Assembly (NCBI GenBank): GCA_964652295.1
Contig: CAZZCL010000005.1
Coordinates: 1-48,493 of the forward strand
Reading direction: 5' to 3'
Source of the DNA: an uncultured Chthoniobacterales bacterium
GTDB lineage: Bacteria; Verrucomicrobiota; Verrucomicrobiia; Chthoniobacterales; CALDSX01
Length of the DNA: 48,493 nt
The translations under genes and the position numbers were made by a program. The first letter of the stretch is position 1. Each line of letters opens with the position of its first letter. The notes beneath the pieces are model-generated. The model was not told the DNA's origin. It worked only from the letters and a program-made list of their open reading frames with translations, and did no database searches. Of this stretch, positions 1-14,439 are shown one piece after another.

Positions 1-37
1 GCCCAAAGCCGGGCTCCCACTCTCAAATCATAACCAT

Positions 38-205
38 TCAAGACGGCGAGGAGCCGATTTTTGCTTTGGCGTAGGGGCCGATTTCCAGCCCCCGCATCAT
101 AAAGTCCATGAGCGCCTGCCACGAGGGACAGCAGATGTAGCGAGTCAAAGTGCGCAGATCGTCAAAGAAGGTTTGGCGCGTGGGCAACTTCACCCGGATG
201 AGCTT
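38..205 (-). pseudogene. C-terminal remnant of an IS transposase (ISNCY-like)
   Basis: Translation KLIRVKLPTRQTFFDDLRTLTRYICCPSWQALMDFMMRGLE resembles the C-terminus of ISNCY-type DDE transposases as I recall it. The N-terminal part is absent. Confidence 0.55.
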
Positions 206-307
206 TATGGTAAGTTCTGGATTTCGGGTCTTCGAACTGCGGGATTTAGGATCAAAGCCCCCCAAAAACGAAAAAACCGCCTCAAAAATGGGCGGCTACA
301 TTCGGGG

Positions 308-320
308 CAAGTTATTGATT
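308..320 (-). promoter_or_regulatory. IHF-binding-site consensus next to the att site
   Basis: Reverse complement AATCAATAACTTG matches WATCAANNNNTTR exactly and lies 6 bp from the tRNA-fragment CCA end. Confidence 0.5.
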
Positions 321-326
321 ATGAAA

Positions 327-377
327 TGGTTGCGGGGGCGGGATTTGAACCCGCGGCCTTCAGGTTATGAGCCTGAC
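327..377 (-). mobile_element. att site: 3' 51 nt of initiator tRNA-Met(CAT), truncated duplicate
   Basis: Minus strand reads GTCAGGCTCATAACCTGAAGGCCGCGGGTTCAAATCCCGCCCCCGCAACCA: anticodon arm with CAT (367-369), T-arm, acceptor 3' strand and CCA. The D-arm and 5' acceptor strand are missing (sequence diverges at 378). Confidence 0.85.
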
Positions 378-455
378 TAAATGGCTTATATTCAGTATGT
401 TATGATTGATAATGGCTGTGGATTCGAAAAAGTCAAGCTTTGCTAAGGGCTCGTT

Positions 456-500
456 TATTCACGGTCTCTATTCACGGCAAAATTCCCGTTGATGGGAATT
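456..500. repeat. TATTCACGG direct repeats plus AATTCCC/GGGAATT inverted repeat; candidate integrase arm-type sites
   Basis: TATTCACGG at 456-464 and 469-477; AATTCCC-gttgat-GGGAATT at 481-500; all ~80-120 bp inside the att site. Confidence 0.4.
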
Positions 501-629
501 TCTTCTGAAGGCAGGCGGACAGTTGTGTTGCGGGACTTCACGCCGGGTGGCCAGTTCCTCCCAGGGGAGTACAAGGCGGGAGGAATCCATAAGATCGGAT
601 CATGTGTCGCTTGGGGAGACTACCTGAAC

Positions 630-1655
630 ATGAGCACAGACAAAAACGATTCCCGAACCCGATCCTTGGCAGAGTATCCACTTCGTGAGCTTTTGCCCAC
701 AATTCCGCGCGGAGCACTTTCCACAGAGCATCTTCACATTCTGGCCACTCGCCTCAAGGAGGCAAAGAATGCGGCCGGGCATGGGCCCGAGTTGGGGGCC
801 GAGGAGGCCAGGTTTTTTGCTGAAAACTGCGACGTTCTCCGGAAGGTTGGGATGGGGCTGGCATTGCGGAATTATGTGCTCTTGGAGATCTATGAAGCCC
901 GCCAGTGGCGCGCGCACTTCCAATCAGTGGAAAAATTTGCTGAAGCTGTCGCGGGTATTTCCAAAAGCCAGCTGATGAAATGCATCGATTCCGCCAGGAT
1001 CGCGATGGATTTCCATGAAGCAGGAATGGGAGCAGTGGCCCCACACGGTCGGCAGGTCGAATTGCTTGCCATGGTGTCAGCAGAGCACCGAATTGCAGCA
1101 TGGAGTCATGCCCTGCAGGTCTTTGCACTGGATGGCGAAAGCACCGAGACTGCCAGATTGGCTCTGCGCGATTATTGCAGGGATCGAAATGTGCGATTCG
1201 GCCGACGGAAATCCAGCAAATCAAAAAACATTGGAATTCCCTCCTCGTTTCTTCTGCCAGCCTCTTCCCCGGACTATTCTGAAACTGTAGAGAAGCCTAG
1301 TGATGTGGGTGTCGGGCAGGCACCACTTTCCGACCTTGCCGAACGGTTCATTATTTCCTTGGCTGATGCCGCTGTCGTTGCTGAAGCCAGAACAACGCTC
1401 CGAAGAAAATCTGTCGCCACCGTGCTTTGTGAAATCGTGGAACAGGTGAGTGCCGAATCCGGCAAGGATGAGGAGGTCCAAAGGATCATAGCAGGATTGG
1501 ATTCTCTCGAGACCACACATCCCGAGCTCGTGGAGGGCCTTCGCATGGCATCTTTGCGGGGGCTTCCAACCCTGATCTCTGAGCGCCTGCTCAGGAGAGT
1601 TCGCGAGAATCAGAAGAGCCAAAAGAAGTCGCGCAAAGCCGCCACAAAAGAGTAG
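630..1655 (+). CDS. Hypothetical phage/island-type DNA-binding protein (DUF3102-like N-terminal region)
   Basis: Long ORF, ATG at 630 with GGGGAG upstream. LLEIYEARQWRAHFQSVEKFAEAVAGISKSQLMKCIDSA...HGRQVELL...AWSHA resembles phage proteins with an L.EI...RLYR....FE.Y.....S......IDAA pattern. Confidence 0.55.
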   Translation: MSTDKNDSRTRSLAEYPLRELLPTIPRGALSTEHLHILATRLKEAKNAAGHGPELGAEEARFFAENCDVLRKVGMGLALRNYVLLEIYEARQWRAHFQSVEKFAEAVAGISKSQLMKCIDSARIAMDFHEAGMGAVAPHGRQVELLAMVSAEHRIAAWSHALQVFALDGESTETARLALRDYCRDRNVRFGRRKSSKSKNIGIPSSFLLPASSPDYSETVEKPSDVGVGQAPLSDLAERFIISLADAAVVAEARTTLRRKSVATVLCEIVEQVSAESGKDEEVQRIIAGLDSLETTHPELVEGLRMASLRGLPTLISERLLRRVRENQKSQKKSRKAATKE

Positions 1656-1689
1656 CGGGATGCCACAGGTGAATTGGCAGCCTGCCCCC

Positions 1690-2355
1690 TTACATTTCCA
1701 TTTCCGCGTTCTTCGCAACTTGAGTGAGGACCGTTTTCGCTTTGCTGACGATCCGGCTCAGCCCGGATTCGCTCATACCGTATCCCTTCGCGACCTCCTC
1801 GCGGCTCCTCTCGCGAACCACCAGGTTGATGAGAATCGCCGCATCCCGAGAGGAGATCCGACGGGAACTTACCGCTAGGCGGACGAGCCTCTGGAATTGC
1901 TTGCGCCTCCGCGCATCGTTTTGATGGTCTCCGGACTCGATGAACACATCAGCCAGCTTGTTTGCATTGCGGGTGCGGATTTGATCACTTCGAATATGCC
2001 TCAGGAGGCAGTTCTTGATGGCTTCCCATGCCGAGCGCTTGATTTGCTCCTCGACATGGAAAGCGTTGCCGGAACGCACTGCGTCCCGCAATTCCTGATT
2101 GTTTTCCAAGTAGCCTTAAAAAAGAAGAAGAGCAGCAGACTGCCTCATGTCCTCTTCCTTATCGTTCAGGCATCCGGACTGACTCCCATTTGGGAGAAAC
2201 CGGTGAAGCAATTGATCGAGCTTGATACCGAATCGATCAAAATACTGTTGAGATTTGGGCTTGGCTTGATGCTCCATGTAGGAGTTGGCCAAGTTGCTTG
2301 TTGATACCCCCCGTGCGGATGCCGGGGCCGACGCTGATAGATGTAACTTTCTCAT
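1690..2355 (-). pseudogene. Sigma-70/ECF-like factor interrupted by an in-frame TAA (2116-2118)
   Basis: ORFs 2116..2355 and 1690..2109 are in the same frame, separated by TAA-GGC-TAC. Region-2-like EEDMRQ precedes the stop; region-4 HTH SREEVAKGYGMSESGLSRIVSKAK follows. Confidence 0.6.
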
Positions 2356-2484
2356 TACACCAGATCCCCCAGCTTGTGCGAACCGCCCTCGATGGCCGAA
2401 AGGCTATCGAAGGGCCCGCCTTCTTCCCCTCCTCCCAAAAATATTCGTCAATTTTCAGCCTTCGAGTGTGTGTTCCTTTATGAG

Positions 2485-2742
2485 ATGAAGACACACAACC
2501 TCGATACTATGATCCAGATGCTGGACGGACGGGCATTGGATGCCATTGACCGCCCGGAATCCCTCCTTGCCTCACTGGGCTCGATTCAGGTGGCCATGAC
2601 CTGTTTCGCGAGCGAGCTTTCCAAGCCGGAAGCCAGCCAGGATGCAGAAAAGCTTTTTGAAATCCTGCTTGTTATTTCGACCACGGCGATGCTGGCCGCT
2701 GCCGATCATGTTTTACCCAGCTTGGAGGAAAAGGGAGAATGA
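2485..2742 (+). CDS. Small helical hypothetical protein (85 aa), first gene of the island operon
   Basis: ATG at 2485; its stop overlaps the next start (ATGA 2739-2742), with AAGGGAG as RBS for the next gene. Confidence 0.6.
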   Translation: MKTHNLDTMIQMLDGRALDAIDRPESLLASLGSIQVAMTCFASELSKPEASQDAEKLFEILLVISTTAMLAAADHVLPSLEEKGE

Positions 2743-4088
2743 AAGCCCAGGTCTGGTCGAAACGGGAGATCGACAAGCTGTTCCGTCTACTCAGCGCCGG
2801 GCATGGCGCATCCGAAATCGCGGCACTACTGGAAAGAACCGAGGCGAGTGTCAGGTATAAAATCCTCAATCTCGGTTACAGCAGCCGCCGGGTCGAGGGT
2901 GCGGAGGCGTCAACAGAATTTTGCGGCGATTCAGATCCTTCATCCCTGGATGAGATACCTGTTCTTGTTGAGCAGCTCAGGGCGCATGCGGGAGAGCAAC
3001 TCAAAAAGGGTGAGGAACGGCGGGAAATCCGCAATTTGGGAAACGAATACAAGACCGACGTGCTGGAGGAGAGAATTCTCGACGAATTTCGCCAAAGGCT
3101 TCTGGACTTGCCACTGCGGATCGACGTGCCGCCTTTGCGGGAGGACATCGTCACCAAGCATGACATTCAAGACCTTGCTGTCGTGGTCATTTCAGACTCT
3201 CATATCGGGCAGGTTGTGGACATTCGCGAGACGGAATCCTCATCGGCCTACAACCCGGCCGTTTTTGTCGCCCGGTTGCACCATCTGGAAATCGAGTTGG
3301 CACGGATTTTCAACAGTCATCCCGTGAAAGAAATCGTGGTCCTTTTCGCAGGAGACATCGTGCACGGAAGGTTGGGGCACTCGCTGGAGGATGATCTGAC
3401 TTTGCCGATTGCCACCCAGATCGACTTGGCATTGCATCTCTTTGTGCAATTTCTGGCCCGGATCGCAACGTTGGCAAAACGGGTGACCGTTCACGGGGTG
3501 GCAGGAAATCATGGGCGCTGGCCGGGAACCAGAAAAATGCCAACCGACCGCCGTTGGAGCCAACTGGACACTCTCTTTTTCCAAGCGGCCCAAGCACTTT
3601 CCGGAGCCACCCTTCCCAATGTGGTCTTCGATGAGCGCTTTTCTGCGAGGCGGATGGTTGACGTCGAAGATTTCCGAATTCTTCTTCTGCATGGTGATCA
3701 GCTTCGGGGCGGACCGTGTGCAGCGAACGGCGTCCAGAAAGAGATGCAGCTTTGGCTGATGCGGTGTGTGCAGACCGGGCAGCGTCCTCCCGACCTCATT
3801 GTGATGGGTGATAAGCATATCTCCGCCAACTTGCCGGTTGGACTTGGCCAGGCTCTCATCAATGGATCCTTTGTCGGTGAGGACGTTTTCAGTCAGAACT
3901 TTGCCCCGTCACCTCCGAGCCAGACCGTCTTCTTTGTCCGTCCGGGGGTTGGGAAAACGGAAACCCATCTGATCCGGCTTGATAAAGCGAAGCTCCCGAC
4001 CCCGCTGCCATATCAACTCAAACCTTCTCTGGAATCCGTTGTGATGAATTTCCATCAGGCACATCAACCACCAAAAAACAGTCTATGA
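2739..4088 (+). CDS. N-terminal HTH (GcrA/Myb-like) fused to a calcineurin-like metallophosphoesterase
   Basis: N-terminus WSKREIDKLFRLLSAGHGASEIAALLERTEASVRYK. Phosphoesterase motifs ISDSHIG, AGDIVHG, AGNHGR, LHGD, and GDKH in place of the usual GHxH. Confidence 0.8.
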   Translation: MKAQVWSKREIDKLFRLLSAGHGASEIAALLERTEASVRYKILNLGYSSRRVEGAEASTEFCGDSDPSSLDEIPVLVEQLRAHAGEQLKKGEERREIRNLGNEYKTDVLEERILDEFRQRLLDLPLRIDVPPLREDIVTKHDIQDLAVVVISDSHIGQVVDIRETESSSAYNPAVFVARLHHLEIELARIFNSHPVKEIVVLFAGDIVHGRLGHSLEDDLTLPIATQIDLALHLFVQFLARIATLAKRVTVHGVAGNHGRWPGTRKMPTDRRWSQLDTLFFQAAQALSGATLPNVVFDERFSARRMVDVEDFRILLLHGDQLRGGPCAANGVQKEMQLWLMRCVQTGQRPPDLIVMGDKHISANLPVGLGQALINGSFVGEDVFSQNFAPSPPSQTVFFVRPGVGKTETHLIRLDKAKLPTPLPYQLKPSLESVVMNFHQAHQPPKNSL

Positions 4089-4537
4089 ACAACACGACCA
4101 TCATTGAGAGTATCTGGAATTTTCCACTCCCCGCACTTCGGGAGCTGGAGGGATCGATTGCCAGGATTCGACAGTTCAAGGAAGAGATCTTTGTTTCCAA
4201 GGCGGAAGATTTTCCGGGTTCAAATGGTGTCGGTCCATCTTCTCCGGAGGAAGAGGCGTTGCCGGCACCTTCCACGGGAAGAGCCGTGCCGGCCCCCCGG
4301 CAGCCACTGCGACCACCAAAAGCAGGAAGCCTGCGGCATACCGTCCACGAAATCTTGAGAGGCGCGAATCGGCCGATCCAGCGCCGCGACATCATCAACA
4401 CTGCCGCCCGCCTGCGCGGAGCATCCGTTGACATCAATTTCAAGGCCAAGGTTGGAGACATCCTTACCAACGCGATTGATCCAAACATCAGCCGGGTTGG
4501 TTACGGGAAATACCAATATCGCGAACCATTGGCTTGA
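4085..4537 (+). CDS. Hypothetical protein with C-terminal winged-helix-like domain
   Basis: ATGA overlap with the upstream gene; Pro-rich linker, then SLRHTVHEILRGANRPIQRRDII...ISRVGYGKYQY, a wHTH-like pattern. Confidence 0.6.
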   Translation: MNNTTIIESIWNFPLPALRELEGSIARIRQFKEEIFVSKAEDFPGSNGVGPSSPEEEALPAPSTGRAVPAPRQPLRPPKAGSLRHTVHEILRGANRPIQRRDIINTAARLRGASVDINFKAKVGDILTNAIDPNISRVGYGKYQYREPLA

Positions 4538-4544
4538 AAGGGAA

Positions 4545-4856
4545 ATGTTCGAAGTTGCCCAAGTGGTCAGAGGAGTTCCATTTCAAATCGGATATTGCAG
4601 GGGGTGGAAGATCCATGGAGATCTGCTCCTCATTCAAGACCCTTTCACTCACATGGTTCTTCACGTTCCTTATGGCATGCTGAGTTGTCGCGGACCATGG
4701 ACCGCCGGTCGCCGATTGACAATCAGTGACCACATGGTTGTCCCTTGCGATCCTTTGGTTTGGATGGATCTGGATGCTGCGGATCTGGTTTCGGCCATTG
4801 ATCTCTGCGCCTCGGTTTCCATCAATCTGCCACGCGATGGTTTCCGAAGAATATGA
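4545..4856 (+). CDS. Hypothetical protein (103 aa)
   Basis: ATG at 4545 after AAAGGGA; fills the gap between neighbours and overlaps the ATPase start (ATGA 4853-4856). Confidence 0.5.
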   Translation: MFEVAQVVRGVPFQIGYCRGWKIHGDLLLIQDPFTHMVLHVPYGMLSCRGPWTAGRRLTISDHMVVPCDPLVWMDLDAADLVSAIDLCASVSINLPRDGFRRI

Positions 4857-5734
4857 CAACGGTATTTCCACATCAGAAGGAAGTTTTTCACGAACTGAAA
4901 GCGACCGCAGCAGCCTTTTTCAGCGATGCTTGGCAGGAGCTGCAGGTGAAGCCCCGGTTCACCCGGCTTCTCGCGGGACCCTCGGGAAGCGGAAAGACAT
5001 TCCTGGCCAAAAATCTTGCGGAAAGCCTCGGGCTTCCGTTTTGGGAATGTGCCGCCACGACGTGGATTCCGCTCGGGTGTTCGCAGCGCGGAGCGCGGCC
5101 GACATGGCTGGATATTGCCGCGTTTATCCGGGCCAACGAGCGTTGTGTGATTTTTGCAGATGAGGTGGAGAAGCTCGGCTGCGACACCTCGGTATGGATG
5201 ACATCGATTCGTGTGGAAATTTTCGGGCTTTTGGATCGCGCACTCCCCCGCACCCTGCGACTCGAATGCGATATGGAGGATGGAGACTATGATCTGTCGG
5301 AAGATCTGAACCTTATTCAGAACCGCCTCGCAAAGTCGGCGTTTCTCATTGGCGGTGGGGCGTTTCAGCATTTGTGGGACAAGACGACCGGTGCCACGAT
5401 TGGGTTCTCCGGTGGAGAGCACGCGGTGCCCGACGTCGATCACAAAACCATCGCCAGCGTGATTCCAGTCGAAATCGCCAACCGGTTTGTCGCGCCCTTG
5501 TTGAGACTGAGCCCCCTCAATCGAAGCGACTACCTGTCCATGTTTGCACACGCGGAGGCCGTCATGCCAGTGGAGATTCGTGGCAAGGCAAGGAGGATTG
5601 CGCACACCACCTTGGACGCTGCGGTCCGACAGAGCCTCGGCTGCCGATGGATCGAACAGGTCATGTTGCGAACCGTGATGGAAGAGGCAGCACCCTCCGC
5701 GCTGTCCGGAGTCGAGCCGGAGGGTTCCACATGA
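4853..5734 (+). CDS. AAA+ family ATPase
   Basis: Walker A GPSGSGKT, Walker B VIFADEVEK, sensor-like LIGGGAF, and arginine-finger-like EIANRF. Confidence 0.85.
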   Translation: MTTVFPHQKEVFHELKATAAAFFSDAWQELQVKPRFTRLLAGPSGSGKTFLAKNLAESLGLPFWECAATTWIPLGCSQRGARPTWLDIAAFIRANERCVIFADEVEKLGCDTSVWMTSIRVEIFGLLDRALPRTLRLECDMEDGDYDLSEDLNLIQNRLAKSAFLIGGGAFQHLWDKTTGATIGFSGGEHAVPDVDHKTIASVIPVEIANRFVAPLLRLSPLNRSDYLSMFAHAEAVMPVEIRGKARRIAHTTLDAAVRQSLGCRWIEQVMLRTVMEEAAPSALSGVEPEGST

Positions 5735-5841
5735 GAACTCGGGGTTCACGAGAGATTCCATGGCGGGAGTTGTCCTTTTTGGGGAAAGCACGGCTTTGCT
5801 AACCTTGCGGGTGGGTGGCAATTCGGGTTGCATGAGTTTCG

Positions 5842-7134
5842 TTAAAGTGGCATTTCGAGGTCACCCGGCGGTTTACGGGCGGGCTTCTTTTTGGGTTTTG
5901 GTTGGGCCTTCATGGGAACCTCCTCCGAACGGGGATTATGGGTCTGCGCCGGTTTGGGAGCAGGAGTTTCCTCCACCTTGGGCTGTGGCGTTTTGGTAGA
6001 GGTTCCGGAGTTGGTGGTGAGCGGATGATCCGGCTGCGGACCGGGCACATCTTGTGCAGTTTGAGTTGTCGCAGGGAGTGTGATTTCTGTGGGCTTTGTC
6101 TTCGCCTTGAGAGGTGCCACGGAATGGAAATCCAGACCATTTTCGATGGCGAATTTCAGGTCACGCTTCGCTCCGGTTGAGAATATTCTGAGGGCGGGTT
6201 CCGTACGGTGAAGGTCGGCCATACGACTTTTCAGCAGGGTTTTTAAAACCCCGCTTGCACAGCCCTTGTCGATGCCTTGCTGGGCATACCGGCCGAAGAG
6301 ACGCCCGATCGTCCAATGGGCGCGGAATTCGAGTCCTTCGTGTATTATTCGCTCCAGTTCCGCCATCCTTTGCGCGACTGCCTTCGGGGCACTGAGATCG
6401 ATGACTTTGACGGTTGGCTGGCCAAAATCCGGGGCGTAGTAGATGCTTCCTTTGAGCCGCAATTGCTTGCCGCCGGGCGACTGGATGACAGGCTGAGCGA
6501 GGTCACCTCCATCGTGTTTTTGGCACCGCACCTGATAACCCGAGGACAAAAGGAATGCTGCCAGTTCCCGCCGGTTGCAGACCATGCCCTTCTCAACCGC
6601 TGCGTGAACTTTCTGCCATACTCTCAACAGGAACTCTTTGGCATCGTTGGCGATCCGCATGTGCTCCCAGGGGGGCTCAATGCGGCGGTTGTCGAGTGGG
6701 TTATCAAAACCGAACTTCAAGTTGATGAGTTCGGTTACAGCGCGGAAGCGATGACGGTCGCTTCGGTCAACGTAGGGGTCAACAATTTTATTGCAGAGGA
6801 GATCGATGCGCGGAGTGATGAAGTGAATTTCACTCTTGCCTTTGTCGCTGTGTGCGATCAGGCACGAGGACACCGCCTCTTCCGGTCTGCCGCCGCGCAG
6901 GTGATATTCCAAGTTGTCGGCAATAAAGTTTTCTTGGGCTGCGTCCAGTTTCTTTGCCTCGCTTACCACGCCGGCAGTATAGCGGTGCCGGACATATGCG
7001 GGGGTTGCGTCGATGACCGCTTGCGTGATGACGGGATCGCCACGCAGCACACGGGCCGTCGGATTCCGGGTGGCGTATTTCAGCCCTCCTGGTTCGGGTT
7101 TGTCTTTTGAGGTGTTGAAAATAGTGAAAACCAT
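5842..7134 (-). CDS. mobA: Relaxase, ColE1 MbeA-like (MOBP/HEN clade)
   Basis: VLRGDP..TQAVIDATP...RYTAGVVS, AHSDKGKSEIHFITPRIDL, PYVDRSDR and LRLKGSIY parallel ColE1 MbeA (VLQGNP..IDATPF..YTSGVLS, EHQDKGRLELNF, PYYDRADR, IRLKGAIY). Pro/Lys-rich tail. Confidence 0.8.
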   Translation of the reverse strand: MVFTIFNTSKDKPEPGGLKYATRNPTARVLRGDPVITQAVIDATPAYVRHRYTAGVVSEAKKLDAAQENFIADNLEYHLRGGRPEEAVSSCLIAHSDKGKSEIHFITPRIDLLCNKIVDPYVDRSDRHRFRAVTELINLKFGFDNPLDNRRIEPPWEHMRIANDAKEFLLRVWQKVHAAVEKGMVCNRRELAAFLLSSGYQVRCQKHDGGDLAQPVIQSPGGKQLRLKGSIYYAPDFGQPTVKVIDLSAPKAVAQRMAELERIIHEGLEFRAHWTIGRLFGRYAQQGIDKGCASGVLKTLLKSRMADLHRTEPALRIFSTGAKRDLKFAIENGLDFHSVAPLKAKTKPTEITLPATTQTAQDVPGPQPDHPLTTNSGTSTKTPQPKVEETPAPKPAQTHNPRSEEVPMKAQPKPKKKPARKPPGDLEMPL

Positions 7135-7484
7135 AAATGGGTAAGGTTGTTGAATTTCGTTTCTTCATCTTTGAGGATTTTGGCGGCATTGTCTCCGTAG
7201 GCATCGGCGACCAGGCGGCGTAGCTTCATGACTTCCATGCGGTGCGCGTGGAGCGCAGCGCCCACAGTCAAGATTTGCTGATTGTCCGGGGTTGTTGGGT
7301 TGGCGACGCGGAATCCGAGCCAGTGTTCTCTGGCTATGGCGGCTGCCAATCGCCCGAACTTCTTGCGCACGGTTGAGTGTTCGTCATCCGCCAATTTGAC
7401 TTCGATTTTTTTTGTGCGCTTCTTTGCTTTGATGGATCTCCGTTTGGGACGTTGACCCCGTTGATCGCCCGGAGTTGCACTCAT
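7080..7484 (-). CDS. mobC: MobC/MbeC-like relaxosome accessory protein (ribbon-helix-helix)
   Basis: KRTKKIEVKLADDEH...AREHWLG resembles the MbeC RHH pattern; directly upstream of and overlapping the relaxase. Confidence 0.65.
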   Translation of the reverse strand: MSATPGDQRGQRPKRRSIKAKKRTKKIEVKLADDEHSTVRKKFGRLAAAIAREHWLGFRVANPTTPDNQQILTVGAALHAHRMEVMKLRRLVADAYGDNAAKILKDEETKFNNLTHLWFSLFSTPQKTNPNQEG

Positions 7485-7711
7485 GATTGCTCCTCCTTGC
7501 TGGTGGCAGGGGATTTTTTCTGGCGGTTTCTTTTTGGCGGCTTGCTTGCTTGCAGCATTGCCTCAAGAAGCATTTGGCGCGTTATTGTTTGTGTGAGACG
7601 GGCTCGCAGGGCGTCCACGCAGCCTGATGCGATAACGGACTCGTTCAAGTTCACGCCGAGCTCGCGGTAAAGCGGGGCGACGTCTATTTCGATGATGGAT
7701 GAGGTTTTCAT
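7481..7711 (-). CDS. Small hypothetical protein upstream of mobC
   Basis: ATG at 7711; stop overlaps the mobC start (ATGA) with AAGGAGGAG as RBS. Confidence 0.5.
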   Translation of the reverse strand: MKTSSIIEIDVAPLYRELGVNLNESVIASGCVDALRARLTQTITRQMLLEAMLQASKPPKRNRQKKSPATSKEEQS

Positions 7712-7940
7712 GCACCAAGCACGGTGGACGCCGAATTTGTGAATTCCTCCCCACCCGTATTTGCTCAAAAACCAGATTCGCTGCCTTCGCTCTCATGAAA
7801 GTCTCACCGTGAGACTCTCCCTCTCCATGGCAGCCATCCGGGGCTGAGTGTCGACCGGAAAGAAAAAAGTCCAACCTCGAAACCCAGGTTGTGGAAGTCA
7901 TCGGAAGGGAAGCTGATTCCAGCGCCTTCCGGTAATCCTC

Positions 7941-8166
7941 TCACATTTGGTTCGAACGGGATTCGATCGCTAGGACACTTTCCTCGATAGTCCACGCCAA
8001 CCCGCACTCCCCGGCAAGTTGCGCATAGGGTTGTCGCCATGACTCGGGCGGATCGGGTAATGAGGTCGGCACCGCATGGGTGCTGCGCTGCTCGAAGGTC
8101 ATCTGTATTGCCTCCTTCAGCTTCGCACTTTCCAGAAGCCCCATTTTTACGAGCAGCGCCATGTCC
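7941..8166 (-). pseudogene. abiEii: AbiEii nucleotidyltransferase toxin, C-terminal fragment
   Basis: DMALLV...AIQMTFEQRSTHAVPTSLPDPPESWRQPYAQLAGECGL matches the typical AbiEii C-terminus; cut at 8167 by an IS end. Confidence 0.7.
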
Positions 8167-8238
8167 CAGGGCAATCGCATCAAAATTTAAGTAAGGACAG
8201 GAGGTAGTCGTGATTCCAGCCCGCACTTTTCTGTTTAA
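8167..8238 (-). mobile_element. Right end remnant of an ISAs1-family element
   Basis: Minus strand encodes KQKSAGWNHDYLLSLLKF*, the ISAs1 transposase C-terminal AGWxxxYLL pattern, followed by the terminal sequence ...GATGCGATTGCCCTG. Confidence 0.65.
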
Positions 8239-9383
8239 CCCAAGTTGAACACTTTCAGAAGGCCGATGTGGCATTAATCGGGATTGGCGGGTTTTAAACG
8301 CCGTTTTGTGGCACTACATTTTGCAGGCTATTTGGAGCCAGCGGCAGTTCGAGGCCGAGGCGGGCGAGGAGTTCAGCGACCATTTTGTCCGGACGGGCCA
8401 CTACCCGCAGGCGAAGTTCCTGAGCTTCGCTCTGGGCGGTTGGCCGCGCCTTGAGCACCACGTCCATGCTGTGCACGGTGGCCACTTCTTTGAGCAACTG
8501 GCGGGCACAGTCGCCCAGCGCTTTACTTTTCATCCACATCTCCAAGGTGCGCCACAGTGCCAGCGTCAGGAAGCAAACAAGGATATGGGCATCGACCCGC
8601 TCGGCTTTTTGATGGAAGACCGGTCGCACTTGCAGGTCGCTTTTTCTGATACGAAAGCATTCCTCCGCCCGCGTGAGTTGGATATACCAGCGCCATAATT
8701 GTGCCGGATCTCGTTCCGTGCAGTTGGTCCGCAGCAAATACGCACCGTGGGCAAGCTCGGCCCAACCCACTCGCCCCGGCTTCTCCTCGATCTGTAATCC
8801 ACACGCACGGCCTTTGTCATCTCGCTCAATACTGACAACGAGAAGTTTTTCGGCTCCGGGATAGTGCCCCAGCCAGCGACCAATGCGCCGCTCGATTTTG
8901 CCTGCATCTTGGACAGGCCGTTTGCGCAGGGATGCGTCGGTCTTTTGCAAACGCGCAAGCAAACGCTGACGCTGTTGTTCGAGAATGGCGGCTTCTTTCT
9001 CTCGTCGGTCGCTGGAACGACACAGCACGTACGTTCGTTGCCTTTACCATCGGGATGCTCGACTAGTTTGACTTCCACTCCGGGCTGAACTTGCGACCAA
9101 TCACTTTCTTCGAGCAGCTGCGCTTGGAAGCCTTTGAGTTGTTGCTTGGGCGTGCCCACGATGTATCGCGCCTTGAGCGACCAACACTCATAATCCTCCC
9201 CGTTGCGAGTGCGGCGATTGCGTCGAAGGAACATGCCGCATCATCCACCCTCATTCCCGCATCTGATAATAGGCTCTGGTTCACTACATGCCATTTAGGC
9301 CACCTGACCATGATAAAACCTAGCTTGGCGGCCGATAAACGGGCGAAATTCGCTTCAGAATGGCCCAAAGTGTTCAACTTGGG
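8239..9383 (-). mobile_element. Internally deleted IS1634-family insertion sequence (1145 bp)
   Basis: Perfect 17-bp terminal inverted repeats CCCAAGTTGAACACTTT at 8239-8255 and 9367-9383. Flanks differ (..TTTAA / CTAGC..), so there is no target duplication. Confidence 0.85.
8294..9234 (-). pseudogene. IS1634 transposase pseudogene (internal deletion plus frameshift)
   Basis: N-terminus MFLRRNRRTRNGEDYECWSL is joined directly to RYIVGTPK (junction ~9174); one base is missing near 9032; C-terminal motifs GAYLLRTN, YIQLTRAEECFR..KSDLQVRPVFHQ, AHILVCFL. Confidence 0.85.
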
Positions 9384-9519
9384 CTAGCAGCCGGTCAAAC
9401 GACACCTGTCGGCGCAGGCGTTGGAGATCGATACCTTCGGCGTCTGCGAGCGATTTCAGCCATACCTCCAGGGCGATCCGGAATGCGGCAGCCGTCGCGT
9501 AGCGGTGTGGCGGCTTCAT
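9384..9519 (-). pseudogene. abiEii: AbiEii toxin, N-terminal fragment
   Basis: ATG overlaps the abiEi stop (ATGA 9516-9519); reads MKPPHRYATAAAFRIALEVWLKSLADAEGIDLQRLRRQVSFDRLL and is then cut by the IS1634 IR. Confidence 0.75.
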
Positions 9520-10115
9520 CGCCTGCCCCGTTTTCCACGCTTGAGCCAGGCTGGCAGTTTGTTACTCTGCGTTTCCCTTGCCGTGATCAACCCGCGATTT
9601 CTCGCCTCATCGAAAGCCTGTTGCAGAAGATCTTGTGACAGCCCTCCCGTGGCAACCAGATCTAGAATCGCCCTCATCGGGCGGGTGACTCGGAAGCCTT
9701 CCCTTTCCTCCACGTCAGCCAGTGCAAGGTCGGCGTGGTGCAGGACGAGAATTGCAGGAATCTCCGCCCCTCTGCGGAACTTTGCCGGAACCGTCATATG
9801 CAGTTTGGCTGGCATGTTGTCAGAAAGGTCAAATATCCGGAGCGCCGTTTCGTGGGAATAGACCCCTTGGGGAGCATCATCACGACCCCGCGACCAAAGC
9901 GACCAAAGAATGAGATCGGAATCCGGCGAAAGCGGATACTGTTTAAGGCGGTAGATGCCGCGATACTCGCGCATCCATTTTCCGGTGCGAACATGGTAGG
10001 CGTGATTGGTCCGGTCAAACCCGGCCGCCTCCGCCTGCTTCGCTGTAAAAAAGCCCTCTTGGGCTTCCGCAACCGCGAAAAGCCGGGCCTGACTTTCTTG
10101 AAACGACCGCTTCAT
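9516..10115 (-). CDS. abiEi: AbiEi type IV toxin-antitoxin antitoxin / transcriptional regulator
   Basis: AEAQEGFFTAKQA...RGIYRL N-terminal wHTH; YSHETAL...LHMTVP and VTRPMRAILD C-terminal motifs; coupled to the abiEii start. Confidence 0.85.
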   Translation of the reverse strand: MKRSFQESQARLFAVAEAQEGFFTAKQAEAAGFDRTNHAYHVRTGKWMREYRGIYRLKQYPLSPDSDLILWSLWSRGRDDAPQGVYSHETALRIFDLSDNMPAKLHMTVPAKFRRGAEIPAILVLHHADLALADVEEREGFRVTRPMRAILDLVATGGLSQDLLQQAFDEARNRGLITARETQSNKLPAWLKRGKRGRR

Positions 10116-10154
10116 GCAACAGCATCCGTATCGGAATACGTAGCTCAGATCAAT

Positions 10155-10183
10155 ATAAACAGCGTATCATTTACGCTATTTAT
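10155..10183. promoter_or_regulatory. Inverted repeat upstream of abiEi; candidate AbiEi operator
   Basis: ATAAACAGCGTA-tcatt-TACGCTATTTAT (11/12 complementary) in the AT-rich region 40-68 bp upstream of abiEi. Confidence 0.5.
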
Positions 10184-10275
10184 TCAGAATCACGATCATC
10201 CGGGTTGCCTTCCGGCGCTCGCTGCTCCCGCTCTCTCAATTTCAAGGCCATGCCCTACGAGCCTGGCTGGCTCTA

Positions 10276-10401
10276 CGAGGGCCACCCGTCCGGGGCGCAG
10301 GTCGCGCCTGGCAGCGTCTCCCAGAGCGTTCCATCGCCGAACTCAAGCATGGGAAGGAAGTGCCGGCGCAGCTCGGAAATCCCCAGAGCACCGGGCTGGT
10401 A
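10276..10401 (-). pseudogene. Short remnant of a GH78 alpha-L-rhamnosidase C-terminal region
   Basis: Minus strand ISELRRHFLPMLEFGDGTLWETLPG...GWPS* parallels MRKLWGGMLDRGATTAWEMFEG...PTRS in the intact GH78 of this window. Confidence 0.4.
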
Positions 10402-10511
10402 ACTTTGCCACCGGTGCAGTGAAGCCAGCAGTCAGCGTCCCTGAGCCAAAACGGGCCTTATGGACACGAGGCCCACATTCCCTTCGATTCGAAAAGCTTG
10501 ACACTCCGTGT

Positions 10512-11581
10512 TCATTTTGATGGTGCGGGGCCGGTGCTGTCGCGCACGAGCAATTCTCCGCCTCGGACCGTGCGTGGTTGCAGGTGATCGCCCGAGTTTT
10601 CCTGGATTCTCTGGTGGACGATGGATACGGCTTCCTCGCCGATGGTTTCGTAGGGCAGGCTGATGACGGTGAGAGCGGGGTTGGAGTAGGCGCAAAAGCG
10701 GGAGTCATCGAACGAGAGCACGGAGATATTCTCCGGGATCCGAAGCCCGCGCATGGTCAACTGATGGATGGTGGCGATGCCTTCCTCATCGCTCATGGGC
10801 ATGAATGCCGTGGGAGCCTGCGGTCGACCGAGCAGGGCATGAACCGCCCGGGCGGCAAAGTCGAAGGGATCAATGGGCGGCACCCCGCACTCCGCCTGAG
10901 ACATGATTTGGCAGTCGCGGTCGGGTCGGCCAGCAGCTTTCATGGCGCGGAGGTAACCAGCCCGGCGCTCGGGACCGAGATCGAAACCTGAGAGACTGTC
11001 GAGGAACGCAATCCGCTGGTGTCCGTGTTGGAGGAGGTGCTGGGTGGCTCTTTCCGCCATTCCGGATGCATCGCCAAGAATGGTCCACGGACGCGCTTCG
11101 GGGGGGCAGTCATTATGCAGCAGTAGGGGAAATTCTGCTGGTTGAGGGAGTCAAAATAGCCGCTGCGGCGGCTGGCATTCAAGAAAACGGCACCGTTGGC
11201 ACCCCGGCGACCGAGAACACGCACAAGGTTGCAGAATTCGAGCCGATCGAGTTCCTCCCCGAAAAGTGACAATTCTATTTCGTTGGTGCTGCAATATCGC
11301 CAAACGCCGTCAAGCAGGGAGTCAACATAGGCAGAGAAGAGGCTTCGTTGTTTCGGTCGCGTTTCGATCACCACGCAAATGTTGGTTAGACGGGTTTCGA
11401 AATTTCGAAGCTTGAACCCCAACTCCTCCGCCCGCTTGCGAATGGAAGAGCGGGTAGCAATCCCGATCTCCGGGCGGTTGCGCAGTGCTCGGCTGACCGT
11501 TCCGGGCGTGACATCGAGCTCCTTTGCCAGCGTGTAGATCGAAATTGGCTGCTTTTGGCGCACAGCGCGTTTCTTGGACAT
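10512..11581 (-). pseudogene. LacI-family transcriptional regulator, frameshifted in a C7 tract
   Basis: HTH SIYTLAKELDVTPGTVSRALRNRPEIG in one frame; sugar-binding half (ATQHLLQHGHQRIAF, RIPENISVLSFDD, PALTVI, LLVRDST) in another. The switch is at the G7 run 11100-11106; G8 would restore the frame. Confidence 0.85.
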
Positions 11582-11623
11582 AACGCTTTCATCATCGATC
11601 TCGATGGTGGAGATTGCAATCCG

Positions 11624-11651
11624 AATGTTGCATACAGTCGCATGCAACATT
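11624..11651. promoter_or_regulatory. Perfect 10-bp inverted repeat upstream of lacI; candidate operator or hairpin
   Basis: AATGTTGCAT-acagtcgc-ATGCAACATT between the GH78 stop and the lacI start; no U-tract follows. Confidence 0.45.
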
Positions 11652-11676
11652 TCGATCCTGCGATCCAGTGAGGCTG

Positions 11677-14439
11677 TTACCCAGAAATCGGGCGGAGCAA
11701 CTCGATGCCTTCGGGAAGCTTGGTCTCAAGGATCAGCTTGCCGGATCGGGATTTCTCCCAGCGGATGCGGAGGGCTCCATGCGGAGTGGGGATGGTGCCT
11801 TCGGCCCATTGCAAATCGCCCGGGAGGGGTTGAATCATAGCACGGGTCCAACCGGGTTCGGCTGGGCGGGCTCCGAGAATATAGGCCGGGAGGAGCCATG
11901 CGGGCCCGGCGGACCATGCATGGCACCAGGAGCGGGTTGGGAGACTGGGGCGATGCCGTCCTTCAAACATTTCCCACGCTGTCGTGGCACCCCGGTCCAG
12001 CATGCCTCCCCATAATTTCCGCATGGTGCCCAGCACGGAATCGGCATCTCCTGTTTCCAAGGCAAAGCGTGCACCAAGCGCCCACATCCATGGGGTTCCG
12101 GTTGGCAGCCACGAGGAGGGAGGATCGATGACTTTGCGGGACGCCACCCGCGCTGATCGCCCCGGAAACAGATTGGCCAGGAGTGCACAAATTTGTGTGG
12201 AAGCCGTGATGGTTGGCGACGTCCGGGCATCGGTTCGGGTTTCGGAGAAAGCGCCAGCATCCGGATTCCAAAAACACTTTCGGGTCGCGCGGGCGAGCCG
12301 CAAGGCAAGCGAGCTCCACCTCTTTGCTTTCGCAGGGAGCCCGAGGGCATCCGCGATTTGTGCGGTGGCATGGAAGGAGGCTATCGCCAGGGCGTTTTCG
12401 CTGGCGTAGATTCGGCTTGTGGAGGATATGTGGTCGTCCTCGCAACCGTTCCAGTCAAGGAAGTGCCAGACGTTTTCGTCTAGTGCGAAGAGCCCTTCAC
12501 GATTGAGACTCTGCTCGACAAATCCGGACTGCTTTTCCATTGAGGGAAGCATTTCACGGGCAAACTCGAGGTCGCCATGGAACCGGAAGTGATCCCGCAC
12601 TCCTAGAGCCCAGAGGAAGCTCCAGTTGGGGATCAATCGGTTTTCCCATGCGCTGGGCACCTGGGAGTTGACCAGCGGGGTCCGCTCCAAGGACTGTGCG
12701 GCCAGCCGCAGGCATCTTTCCGGCAGGAGTCGCTCTCCTTGCACGTAGTTGTGAACCGGCACCGCCATGCTGGCGGCATCCCCCACCCAAAGCGCCTGCT
12801 CATACGGTGCATCGACGAAGGTGTCCATCGAGCACATCCGGAGGGTGTGGGTGCAGAGTTCGTAGATCTGGTTGATCCGGGTGTCCGAGCAGCGGAAGAA
12901 ACCGAGAGGTCGCAAGGGATAGGTGGAGACACGAATGCGCGCAGAGAGGATCTTTGCCGGACGGCCAGCGGGCTTGACATCCAGCACGAGAAATCGGAGT
13001 CCCCGCGGTTGCAGGGAGGTGAACGTTTGCCGGCCTTCGCGGCAACGGTAGCGGAAGCTGTTGTTGGCCAGTTCCGTGAATTGAACCTGCCCGTCCATCA
13101 TCCCCTCGATGCCAGCGCCTTCCAGGAGCGTGTCCTTTCCCGCATCGAGATCGATCTCGACGAAACCATTGGTCATCCGGCCGAAGTCCAGAATGAAGCG
13201 TTGGGAGAGCTTCGAGGACCGCGCCATCTCGACCTCCATGGGAAGTTGAATGGGCACTGCCGTTCCCGATTGCAGCGATGTCCGGCACGTCACCGCCATG
13301 TAGGTGTCGTGCTTGGGAACGGCCCCCGATGGCAGCTCCGATGGTGCCACGACTTCCGTTGGATTTCGTCGGCTCTTGCGTTTTTCGGCTTTTTCTTCAC
13401 TTCCCGGTTGGAACAACCAAAGGTCTTTACTGTCAGCCCGGGGACGAACCTGTTTGATGCCCGGGATCCCGCCGATTGCGATTCCCAGATCGAGGTCGTG
13501 GGCTATTCCGTTCCAGTCCACAAGCAATTCGTGATCACCTTGCTTCACCGATACCTCGGCTTGAAGATCGAAGGTGTCCTGCTTGAAGCTGAGTGGTTTG
13601 CCATCCAGGCGCATTGAAATGGGGCCGCTATACATGGCTCCGTATTTGATCCAAATGGTTGCGTCCCGAGGCACGTGCAAGGCCGTGAGAAACGTGCCCT
13701 GCACCTTGATGACATTGGCGGAGAGGTTCTCCGGTGCAAGCACCAAGCCTGCACGCAGCGCAGTGATCAGAGGAGCGTCACGAAATATTCCTGCATGGGT
13801 TGCCGTGACACACTCCCATGGTTTATCGGTGAGAGGGGGAATGGTGCGCGGATTGAGCTGGCCCCATGGTTCGCAGCCCGCCGGGCCGATGGCAGATGCC
13901 GGAGACCATCCTCTTTCCTGCTCGGTGGCTTCAATAGCGCAGGCCTGTTCCTCGAACGGCAATTGACAGGCAATGCGCGGCGTAACGGCTTCGTATTCGG
14001 GTGAGCGGCGGCCTTCCCAAGTGCTGTCTGTCGCTGCCAATGTGGTGGCCCCTGCCTGAACTTCCAAGATCAGCCCCGCCCGACTCACAAACGATTGGAA
14101 GTTTCCTTCCCCCCAGTGTTGGACAATCACTCGCAGTGTGTTTTTGCCACGGCGCAGGAACTCGCGGACATCGTGCAGATCAAACTCGTAGTGGTTGGGA
14201 AAATTCCGGGGCGGTCCGTGGCCGATGCGCGTGCCATTCAGCCAGAGGACATATCGTGAGTCCGCGCTGATCAGCACCCGTGCATTCTTCGGCATCCGCT
14301 TGAGGTCGAAGCTGCGGCGGAATTCCGCGATGGCATTTCGCGGGCACGGTTCCGCATCCAGCCAGATCCAATTCGCATTGCGAAATCCGAGAAGGGCAGG
14401 CGCACCCTTCCGGATTTTTGCTGCAATGGCACAGGTCAT
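11677..14439 (-). CDS. Alpha-L-rhamnosidase, GH78 (no signal peptide)
   Basis: ISADSRYVLWLNG N-domain, ILDFGR, DTFVDAPYEQALWVGD, WHFLDW, GATTAWE, RSWCHAWSAGP, GTIPTPHG. Confidence 0.9.
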   Translation of the reverse strand: MTCAIAAKIRKGAPALLGFRNANWIWLDAEPCPRNAIAEFRRSFDLKRMPKNARVLISADSRYVLWLNGTRIGHGPPRNFPNHYEFDLHDVREFLRRGKNTLRVIVQHWGEGNFQSFVSRAGLILEVQAGATTLAATDSTWEGRRSPEYEAVTPRIACQLPFEEQACAIEATEQERGWSPASAIGPAGCEPWGQLNPRTIPPLTDKPWECVTATHAGIFRDAPLITALRAGLVLAPENLSANVIKVQGTFLTALHVPRDATIWIKYGAMYSGPISMRLDGKPLSFKQDTFDLQAEVSVKQGDHELLVDWNGIAHDLDLGIAIGGIPGIKQVRPRADSKDLWLFQPGSEEKAEKRKSRRNPTEVVAPSELPSGAVPKHDTYMAVTCRTSLQSGTAVPIQLPMEVEMARSSKLSQRFILDFGRMTNGFVEIDLDAGKDTLLEGAGIEGMMDGQVQFTELANNSFRYRCREGRQTFTSLQPRGLRFLVLDVKPAGRPAKILSARIRVSTYPLRPLGFFRCSDTRINQIYELCTHTLRMCSMDTFVDAPYEQALWVGDAASMAVPVHNYVQGERLLPERCLRLAAQSLERTPLVNSQVPSAWENRLIPNWSFLWALGVRDHFRFHGDLEFAREMLPSMEKQSGFVEQSLNREGLFALDENVWHFLDWNGCEDDHISSTSRIYASENALAIASFHATAQIADALGLPAKAKRWSSLALRLARATRKCFWNPDAGAFSETRTDARTSPTITASTQICALLANLFPGRSARVASRKVIDPPSSWLPTGTPWMWALGARFALETGDADSVLGTMRKLWGGMLDRGATTAWEMFEGRHRPSLPTRSWCHAWSAGPAWLLPAYILGARPAEPGWTRAMIQPLPGDLQWAEGTIPTPHGALRIRWEKSRSGKLILETKLPEGIELLRPISG

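Follow-up and report, generated by a model that had tools for sequence, protein, structure and literature searches.

A conserved operon with a phage-related phosphoesterase and a short ClpX-like ATPase at the edge of a genomic island family in Verrucomicrobiota

Five coupled genes and a divergent partner

We have examined a five-gene operon of an uncultured Chthoniobacterales bacterium (Verrucomicrobiota), located in the first kilobases of contig CAZZCL010000005.1 of GenBank assembly GCA_964652295.1. The window, that is, the whole stretch of DNA analysed, comprises 48,493 nucleotides. The operon genes were named g1 to g5, and a gene that diverges from them was named gB:

g1, 2485-2742, plus strand: 85 aa, no fold assigned, translationally coupled to g2
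g2, 2739-4088, plus strand: 449 aa, GcrA/Myb-like helix-turn-helix (HTH), long helix and DP1-like metallophosphoesterase (MPE), a putative DNA exonuclease
g3, 4085-4537, plus strand: 150 aa, N-terminal helix, Pro-rich linker and C-terminal winged-helix-like domain of ~70 aa
g4, 4545-4856, plus strand: 103 aa, predicted small beta-barrel with a C-terminal helix
g5, 4853-5734, plus strand: 293 aa, ClpX-like AAA+ ATPase without the N-terminal domain
gB, 1690-2355, minus strand: divergent, apparently sigma-70/extracytoplasmic function (ECF)-like regulator, broken by an in-frame TAA at 2116-2118

The original prediction, made from the letters of this DNA, had described five tightly coupled open reading frames (ORFs). 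This coupling was confirmed, since the ATGA stop/start overlaps at 2739, 4085 and 4853 can be read directly from the sequence. The start of the fourth gene was corrected to the ATG at 4545, which leaves a gap of 7 nt after the g3 stop codon and agrees with 15 homologues; likewise, 16 homologues agree with the g1 start at 2485. The same prediction had overlooked gB, which is conserved and belongs to the unit. Scans against the Pfam, PHROG, NCBIfam and PADLOC libraries took in eleven proteins encoded between 1 and 10.1 kb of the window.

The operon is conserved and consists of two units

Using tblastn, we found all five genes in the same order in nine other loci (L005, L006, L007, L029, L030, L031, L034, L037 and L038). 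Because they share this order, the operon is more than a chance arrangement, and the co-occurrence that the original prediction had proposed to look for was present. The source genome contains a single copy of g2, and the g2 profile matched 2 out of 401 sampled genomes of the phylum, the source genome included. All ten g2 matches in contigs representing one genome per species fell on contigs titled as Verrucomicrobiota lineages, and metagenome contigs yielded 100 g2 relatives, of which 80 were kept. So far, the gB-g1-g2-g3 block has been seen only in Verrucomicrobiota.

The five genes do not behave as the single unit that had been proposed. We compared the 23 informative loci, defined as those carrying g2 at an identity of at least 37% and at least 3 kb of downstream DNA; they include near-copies from different samples (L047/48/49/51 and L034/44), and the independent count is therefore lower. 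Behind g3, g5 was present in 14 loci, while in 8 loci g4-g5 were replaced by genes for a ClpP-like protease and an ATPase that we named c6. The remaining locus carried neither cassette, its g2 being a fragment of 180 residues. The alternative cassette begins after g3 with the ClpP-like protease (Pfam, 4e-38), sometimes continues with a 236-aa unknown protein (c13), and then encodes c6, a P-loop ATPase of ~470 aa that matched the PADLOC model mad8 at 1e-12 (profile positions 28-290 of 314) and, weakly, HerA/TrwB. It was found in L008, L009, L036, L042 and L047-L051, and partly in L032, L033, L052, L057 and L066. None of the six loci whose g2 is only 31-33% identical to that of the window carried either cassette.

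The position of the cassettes also varies. In locus L009, ClpP and c6 lie upstream of g1, and g4 is downstream; L035 and L041/L050 carry g5 with no g4 detected. By tblastn, g4 was found in 15 related loci, and it always stands directly before g5. Over 14 loci, the pairwise identities of g2 correlated with those of g5 at r = 0.24, a value reached by 158 out of 2000 permutations, and the identity of g4 tracked that of g5 (r = 0.56) and not that of g2 (r = -0.05). In L029, g2 is closest to the g2 of the window (66%), whereas g5 is closest to that of L038 (61%). This incongruence between g2 and g4/g5 was read from identity matrices, not from trees. Thus, the operon is composed of two units, a conserved backbone formed by g1-g3 and gB, and a cassette, g4-g5, that shuffles independently. 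Many relatives contain extra genes that are absent from the window: one of ~108 aa that separates g3 from g4, between one and three paralogues of ~190 aa (c5), and c12/c17 beyond gB.

g2 joins a DNA-binding-type domain to a DP1-like phosphoesterase

The g2 protein matched the Pfam family Metallophos (PF00149) with 25.2 bits (E = 2.5e-5; gathering cut-off, 21.5) and the phage family phrog_284, annotated as 'exonuclease', with 143 bits (2.3e-41; residues 78-414 on profile positions 66-394 of 398). Canonical MPE motifs are DxH, GD, GNH, H and a GxH-type motif, and g2 contains all five metal-binding/catalytic motifs, as DxH, G205-D206, G256-N257-H258, H318 and G357-D358-x-H360. In an alignment of 42 homologues, 29-65% identical to g2, residues D153, H155, D206, N257, H258, H318, D358 and H360 were invariant. 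The last motif, GDKH (357-360), was invariant across the same 42 homologues, and therefore it is the normal last motif of the family and not a lesion.

The AlphaFold model of g2 (predicted local distance difference test, pLDDT, 83.7) shows three helices (8-44), a disordered stretch (54-72), a single helix of 45 residues (77-121) and the MPE domain (146-418). The layout announced by the original prediction, a phosphoesterase with a DNA-binding-type N-terminus and a charged coiled linker, is thus found in the model, and the GDKH that it had noted is family-wide. Alignment of the model with VIA-align placed the PolD DP1 proofreading exonuclease at the top (Z 17.3; root-mean-square deviation 3.2; 239 residues), about 2.5 Z above the Pol delta B-subunit (Z 14.8), with Vps29 at 14.2 and Mre11/SbcD at 13.4-13.7. 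The fold is the beta-sandwich of MPEs, as 332 of the 996 aligned PDB chains reached a Z of at least 8 and all 50 among the matches listed have the MPE fold. Foldseek pointed to the same superfamily.

At the level of sequence profiles, the g2 family matched no PDB chain through the phosphoesterase part at E values up to 1, and its 16 matches were all N-terminal. This N-terminal profile matched 2lvs (1.2e-5), the GcrA structures 7ye1 (1e-3) and 5yiu (1e-2) and Myb/Cdc5 proteins (4e-3 to 0.05), and the first ~50 residues of g2 matched phrog_323 at 1.8e-8. A word-based homologue search returned 106 proteins. Among the 85 best (E of 7e-47 or better), coverage of g2 reached at least 90% in 80, which makes the HTH-MPE fusion the norm of the family. 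When compared with PolD DP1 and Mre11/SbcD, g2 is alike in fold and in the possession of all five motifs, but the N-terminal HTH and the long helix are additions of g2, and its last motif is GDKH. No DP2 or Rad50/SbcC partner was recognised in the Pfam, PHROG and NCBIfam scans of the eleven proteins; the neighbours of g2 are g1, g3, g4 and the ClpX-like AAA+ protein. From its fold rank and from the phage gene context described below, g2 is predicted to be a putative DNA exonuclease.

Relatives of g2 occur in phage replication and recombination modules

The members of phrog_284 belong to SPbeta-like, Herelleviridae, Streptomyces and uncultured phages. A tblastn search of phages with g2 returned 34 records at 22-30% identity, and 16 relatives were found in viral contigs. 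In six of these viral contigs (L012-L017) the relatives are 28-31% identical to g2, and five of them align from query residues 1-6, so that the HTH is included. On viral contigs of ~72 kb, genes for DNA polymerase, for a large unknown protein and for a RuvC-like resolvase precede a full-length HTH-MPE gene; sigma-like and HNH genes are also nearby in L017. Among other contigs, the g2 relative of L070 follows PolA and a DUF5906 protein. Similar enzymes thus occur in phages, as the original prediction had stated. In contrast to these phage genes, which lie in replication/recombination modules, g2 is chromosomal, resides in an island and has four coupled partners. No characterised member of phrog_284 was found in the literature searched, although the search was shallow and a description may exist.

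Not one of the other genes of the window, among them g1, g3, g4 and g5, was found by tblastn in the viral loci that carry g2 relatives, and a scan of viral contigs with the g5 profile returned only distant AAA+ proteins (23-41%). We also considered whether gB, g3 and g2 share one phage source. This idea found no support, as gB matched the phage sigma-like protein at an E of 1.3 and g3 matched the ORF following the phage MPE with a Prob of 0.3.

A phosphoesterase-based transposase or integrase was considered as well, since the block hugs tRNA sites and weak 'transposase' labels exist (the JGI name of P0063, and a phrog_4646 match of 2.6e-5 on the HTH of a phage homologue). We rejected it because a tyrosine integrase of the ordinary type and the 51-bp repeats are present in the island; in addition, hydrolytic phosphoesterases are not known to join DNA.

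More distant g2 relatives (24-29% identity), many on contigs longer than 100 kb, form a second conserved trio, in which the MPE gene is followed by an ORF of ~140-180 aa and then by one of ~326-363 aa (L018, L079, L081, L086, L088-L094, L097, L098, L101 and L102). No Pfam match was obtained for the ORF pairs of the six loci scanned (L018, L081, L086, L092, L097 and L098).

g5 is a short ClpX-like ATPase of a large family

The assignment of g5 as an AAA+ ATPase proved correct. Both its Walker A (G42-K48) and its Walker B motif (D103-E104) are invariant, and alignment of the family profile with verrucomicrobial ClpX by hhalign (Prob 98.4; E = 4e-15) paired g5 37-277 with ClpX 133-403, across both AAA+ subdomains. 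ClpX chains also gave the longest PDB profile matches. Scores against the ClpX models TIGR00382 and NF003745 were 28.5 and 23.1 bits, compared to cut-offs of 359 and 370.75, and 22.6 bits in the genome search. The source genome has its own clpP-clpX pair on contig C18.

Features of ClpX that are conserved in g5 are both Walker motifs, the GAF region, a sensor-2-like G-x-R and, within the IGF loop, the GF. The N-terminal zinc-binding domain that ClpX possesses is missing from g5, where just 36 residues precede the aligned region and Walker A starts at residue 42. A further difference concerns the pore-1 loop, which is GYVG in ClpX and PLGCS in g5 (consensus PLGAS), with W71, P73 and G75 invariant instead. 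According to PMC7112951, Tyr153 of this loop grips the substrate in ClpX and the IGF loop is critical for ClpP binding. In the g5 family, G184-F185 is invariant, is preceded by I, M, L, V or A, and aligns with MGF, LGF or IGF of ClpX.

A word-based search with g5 gave just 10 proteins. An exhaustive profile search showed a far larger family, with 288 representative clusters at an E of 1e-30 or better, mostly of 280-320 aa, and the g5 family is thus much larger than that of g2. Matches at an E of 1e-20 or better were found in 14 of 401 genomes sampled from the class, the source genome included. One genome has three full copies, and another has six matches, several of them at contig ends. The genes upstream of g5-like genes differ among the few loci inspected. 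Six stretches of 10-13 kb, taken from four genomes and surrounding such genes, contained none of g1-g4, gB, ClpP or c6. In one case, a g5-like gene of another genome lies two genes after one whose product matches a DUF262 protein through residues 5-57 (7p9k, 4e-12).

Several side observations concern g5-like genes elsewhere. Genomes G600 (contigs C132, C157 and C22) and G501, members of the same order, contain several g5-like genes without g1-g4, and the copies of G501 break contigs, as repeated mobile DNA does. Distant homologues of ~370 aa abut or overlap the preceding gene for a 238-aa tyrosine recombinase (L119:365-2181 and L120:441-2271). Finally, C5:56754-57392 (L131:8261-8899, minus strand), located between an AraC-type regulator and the integrase, contains a second g5-like gene in the form of a 3' fragment; this regulator shares 89% protein identity with a gene flanking the island in L029.

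The small partners and gB

The g1 alignment (16 sequences) showed invariant S26, G32, Q52, D53 and P78. No match to g1 was found in Pfam, PHROG, PADLOC or NCBIfam, and its ESM Atlas matches all scored 0.85 or less, which the tool grades as mere leads.

In g3, 25 aligned sequences share a conserved C-terminal domain of ~70 residues that follows a short N-terminal helix and a Pro-rich linker. When members were scanned singly against Pfam, 4 of 25 matched WH_Rok (best, 2.8e-4) and 3 of 25 matched HARE-HTH (0.021). The family also showed weak PHROG matches, phrog_4665 and phrog_12313, at ~1e-3, and no PDB match in the profile search. Because so few members match WH_Rok or HARE-HTH, the winged helix that had been proposed for g3 is plausible but weakly supported.

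The g4 model (pLDDT 91.5) consists of eight strands and a helix. Its best PDB fold match with VIA was the Sm-like 3by7 (Z 6.4, under the noise level stated for the tool); Foldseek returned nothing at an E of 0.001 or better, and the ESM Atlas contained no usable match. Complex prediction of g4 with g5 gave a score of 0.00 in a run without controls, which is uninformative in either direction.

The gB gene looks like one for a sigma-70 region-4/ECF-type protein. It matched TIGR02937 at 1.1e-7, below the cut-off, and its homologue in L011 is recognised as Sigma70_r4. The nonsense codon separates a piece of 79 aa, which aligns to residues 18-92 of the 232-aa homologue of L029, from one of 139 aa, which aligns to its residues 96-232. 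Homologues of gB form a cluster (c1) of 28 members in 27 loci, divergently oriented upstream of the block.

The block lies at the edge of an island with variable cargo

Around the operon, the following features were recognised:

gA, 489-1655: 388-aa ORF between the attachment (att) fragment and gB
relaxase gene, 5842-7134, minus strand: MbeA-like mobilization relaxase, convergent with the operon
small ORF, 7080-7484, minus strand: upstream of and overlapping the relaxase gene, MobC-like by position only
tRNA-Met(CAT) 3' fragment, 327-377, minus strand: 51 bp, att repeat marking the island boundary

The 51-bp fragment has an exact copy at C5:61139-61189, inside an intact tRNA-Met next to a tyrosine integrase (PF00589, 3.7e-19; region C5:59682-61215), and ARAGORN found no whole tRNA in the window. 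The operon is therefore placed 2 kb inside the left repeat. The repeats are separated by 60.8 kb, and the DNA between them includes ~46 kb of genes for glycoside hydrolases, sulfatase and major facilitator superfamily transporters; in the window, the stretch from 10.5 to 48.5 kb consists of glycoside hydrolase, sulfatase and transporter genes. The element is thus either a metabolic island of very large size or a small one that rearrangement has split. For gA, the Pfam, PHROG, PADLOC and NCBIfam libraries yielded no match, and the related loci contain no counterpart.

The original prediction had placed the operon on a mobilizable island carrying AbiE, a description that holds in part. The relaxase matched NCBIfam NF047848 (MbeA-like) at 9.9e-24 with 84 bits, far under the 500-bit cut-off, and a homologue also lies downstream of g5 in L003; the ORF at 7080-7484 weakly matched phrog_16407 (2.8e-3). 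AbiEi is intact at 9516-10115 (PADLOC, 1.5e-67). The expected AbiEii, identified by reading the sequence and not by a family search, is reduced to a 54-aa ORF (9355-9519) next to an IS1634-type transposase fragment (8294-9028), and the AbiE pair looks disrupted by this insertion sequence (IS) fragment.

In relatives, the block abuts housekeeping genes or tRNA genes for Pro (L004), Ala (L030), Arg (L034 and L035) and Phe (L047/L048). The cargo downstream varies by island and includes DUF5131 (matching PDC-M30B/M41B), HipA, Fic, PIN, IrrE-HTH, Mrr and Cap17-like genes, and E1 with multiubiquitin. Cargo sites of sister islands are at L029:15093-17316, L035:11324-13768 and L011:16790-17338, and contain an RNase T-like exonuclease accompanied by a Cap17-like ATP nucleosidase and an AAA protein, a set of ThiF/E1 and multiubiquitin genes, and an Mrr-type restriction enzyme. 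Tyrosine integrases lie on the far side, 6-11 kb away in two relatives, with the nearest at 53 kb in a third and at ~55 kb in the source genome; none was found on the same contig in two further relatives. Neither the loci of four relatives nor two longer stretches showed att repeats within the DNA examined.

Contigs from three other studies contain relatives, at 90-97%, of window positions 400-8400 and 9200-10400. Within positions 1-12000, the parts 8400-9200 and 10400-12000 had no coverage from the contigs of other metagenomes, which, being contig data, has no bearing on absence. One contig form, present in two runs from two other studies, joins position 1508 to 7957 with 14 other letters between them, skipping 6448 bp that hold gB, g1-g5, the relaxase gene and two small ORFs. 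This junction may be a variant without the whole block or an assembly artefact, and is weak evidence, given a likeness of 90% in metagenomes.

Integrative mobilizable elements combine an integrase, att repeats and a relaxase and lack conjugation machinery of their own. Their counterparts here are the 51-bp direct repeats of the tRNA-Met 3' end, the tyrosine integrase at the intact tRNA gene and the candidate MbeA-like relaxase, but the distance between the repeats and the metabolic genes that they enclose set this locus apart. The gB/g1-g5 backbone was not found as part of any described element family.

Comparison with known defence systems

The original prediction could not match the operon to a named system, and neither could PADLOC, which returned nothing for g1-g4 and only Walker-region matches for g5. 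These were IetA (1.7e-8; profile positions 110-188 of 330) and mad8 (8.9e-4), and cover only the stretch from Walker A to Walker B. Except for AbiEi, the other ten proteins of 1-10.1 kb matched no PADLOC model, those for IetS and the remaining mad genes included; no search aimed at these genes individually was made. IetAS pairs the IetA ATPase with the IetS protease, and here the IetA match is restricted to the profile segment given above and no IetS partner was recognised by PADLOC. As for MADS, the likeness lies with c6 of the sister islands and, weakly, with g5. MAD7-MAD8 is an ATPase-nuclease module needed for MADS defence, according to PMC13662399. The silence of PADLOC means just that the operon is not a known system.

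A tentative role in the island life cycle

The original prediction had offered defence, counter-defence or island maintenance as possible functions. Maintenance fits the constant edge position best, defence is possible, and nothing points to counter-defence. We tentatively favour, as an explanation that is credible without being probable, that the operon is the life-cycle and DNA-processing core of the island and is of phage origin. The five genes would form the rightward arm of a bidirectional conserved backbone in a family of mobilizable genomic islands, often located beside tRNA genes. Module 1, made of g1-g2-g3 and the divergent gB, would be a DNA-binding nuclease unit derived from phage, in which g2 may bind DNA via its GcrA/Myb-type HTH, probably pairs through the 45-residue helix and may trim DNA with its DP1/Mre11-type exonuclease domain; g3 would contribute a winged-helix contact to DNA, and g1 would be the small coupled partner. 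Module 2, g4-g5, would be a ClpX-derived motor that lacks the substrate-binding N-domain of ClpX, with g4 standing in as the specificity partner of g5 and the GF docking motif allowing hand-over to the host ClpP. Such a motor might remodel or destroy a module-1 protein or an island regulator, and in this way switch DNA processing on or off during induction, processing or replication after excision, or transfer.

We ranked this explanation first because the block keeps a constant position and a fixed partner, gB, occurs once per island and is followed by variable cargo, as island backbones do, and because the nearest kin of the nuclease act in phage DNA metabolism. Several observations weigh against it. 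The pore-1 tyrosine is missing, which makes canonical unfolding by g5 doubtful. The islands contain no recognised replication initiator, primase or helicase, which would leave a replication role without partner genes. In this genome gB is broken by a nonsense codon while g1-g5 are intact, a poor fit to an essential regulator of the operon. Since the identities of g2 and g5 do not track each other and g5-like genes occur elsewhere without g1-g4, module 2 may be hotspot cargo and not a partner of module 1. Lastly, a nuclease, DNA readers, an ATPase/protease, a patchy distribution and defence-rich surroundings fit a defence system equally well.

The main rival is accordingly a new anti-phage system, possibly of the abortive-infection type or a modification-dependent restriction system, which we regard as rather unlikely. 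In such a system g2 would be the nuclease effector, aimed by its own HTH and the winged helix of g3, with g1 as a coupled inhibitor or sensor, and g4-g5 (or ClpP and the c6 ATPase in other islands) would free or regulate the nuclease by unfolding or proteolysis. GcrA-type and HARE-type HTHs have been linked to the reading of modified DNA, which we counted in its favour, together with the wealth of defence and toxin-antitoxin genes in these islands (AbiEi in the window and most of the cargo listed for relatives), the patchy distribution, the swapping of ATPase/protease cassettes behind a constant nuclease, the match of c6 to a component of the MADS module and the g5-like gene found near the DUF262-like protein. 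However, any backbone gene of an island that carries defence genes would be expected to lie near many of them, the block is always at the island edge with gB instead of in varied contexts, and the nearest phage relatives of g2 are in replication/recombination modules; the PADLOC results for g1-g5 also count against it.

Alternatively, the operon could consist of two unrelated things that are transcribed together, g1-g3 being a phage-derived backbone and g4-g5 an independent cassette in the first cargo slot, with a function of its own. This view, which is compatible with either the life-cycle or the defence reading, we consider improbable. It draws on the identities of g4, which follow g5 and not g2, on the differing nearest relatives of g2 and g5 in L029, on the loci with g5 and no detected g4, on the rearranged order of L009, and on the size of the g5 family with its six stretches free of backbone genes. 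On the other side, an ATPase cassette is kept in exactly this slot in 22 out of 23 loci, whereas genes further downstream vary, and the g4-g5 stop/start overlap and the 7-nt gap between g3 and g4 point to co-translation.

A further reading, to which we give little credence, is that of a self-contained immune module of an undescribed kind. The island's ClpX paralogue, having lost the substrate-binding domain of ClpX and relying on the beta-barrel protein g4 as its adaptor, would borrow the host ClpP to destroy a brake, g1 or g3. This would unleash a DP1-like exonuclease, which readers of the GcrA and winged-helix types would direct to foreign DNA that is possibly modified. A private ClpP and a HerA/mad8-like ATPase would do likewise in sister islands, and the nuclease would have been captured from a phage replication module.

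That the operon is what remains of a phage or satellite replication module in decay, without present function, could be suspected from the nonsense codon in gB, the apparently cut AbiE pair and the 3' fragment of a second g5-like gene, but is very unlikely because the five ORFs are intact and the catalytic residues of g2 are invariant in its 42 homologues, and the same gene order persists where g2 shares only 37-66% identity with that of the window.

A combination of known domains that matches no named system

Judged by sequence, all domains found here belong to known superfamilies. Their combination, the island family and the short ClpX-like family do not correspond to a named system in PADLOC, Pfam, NCBIfam or PHROGs, and no description of them was found in the literature, where the search was shallow and one may exist. 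The pairing of a g5-like motor with a phage-type DNA-binding nuclease is a combination without a described function. Of wider interest is the HTH-fused, DP1-like phosphoesterase, common to phages and islands. Short ClpX-like ATPases that keep the ClpP-docking motif without the N-domain and the pore tyrosine, and that stand behind differing upstream genes in the few loci inspected, hint at a means by which mobile elements might redirect the host protease. If the backbone reading is right, the operon would form the core of a so far undescribed family of genomic islands in Verrucomicrobia, with defence and toxin-antitoxin cargo. The mobile elements of this phylum are barely known, and gB with g1-g3 would provide a marker set for finding such islands.

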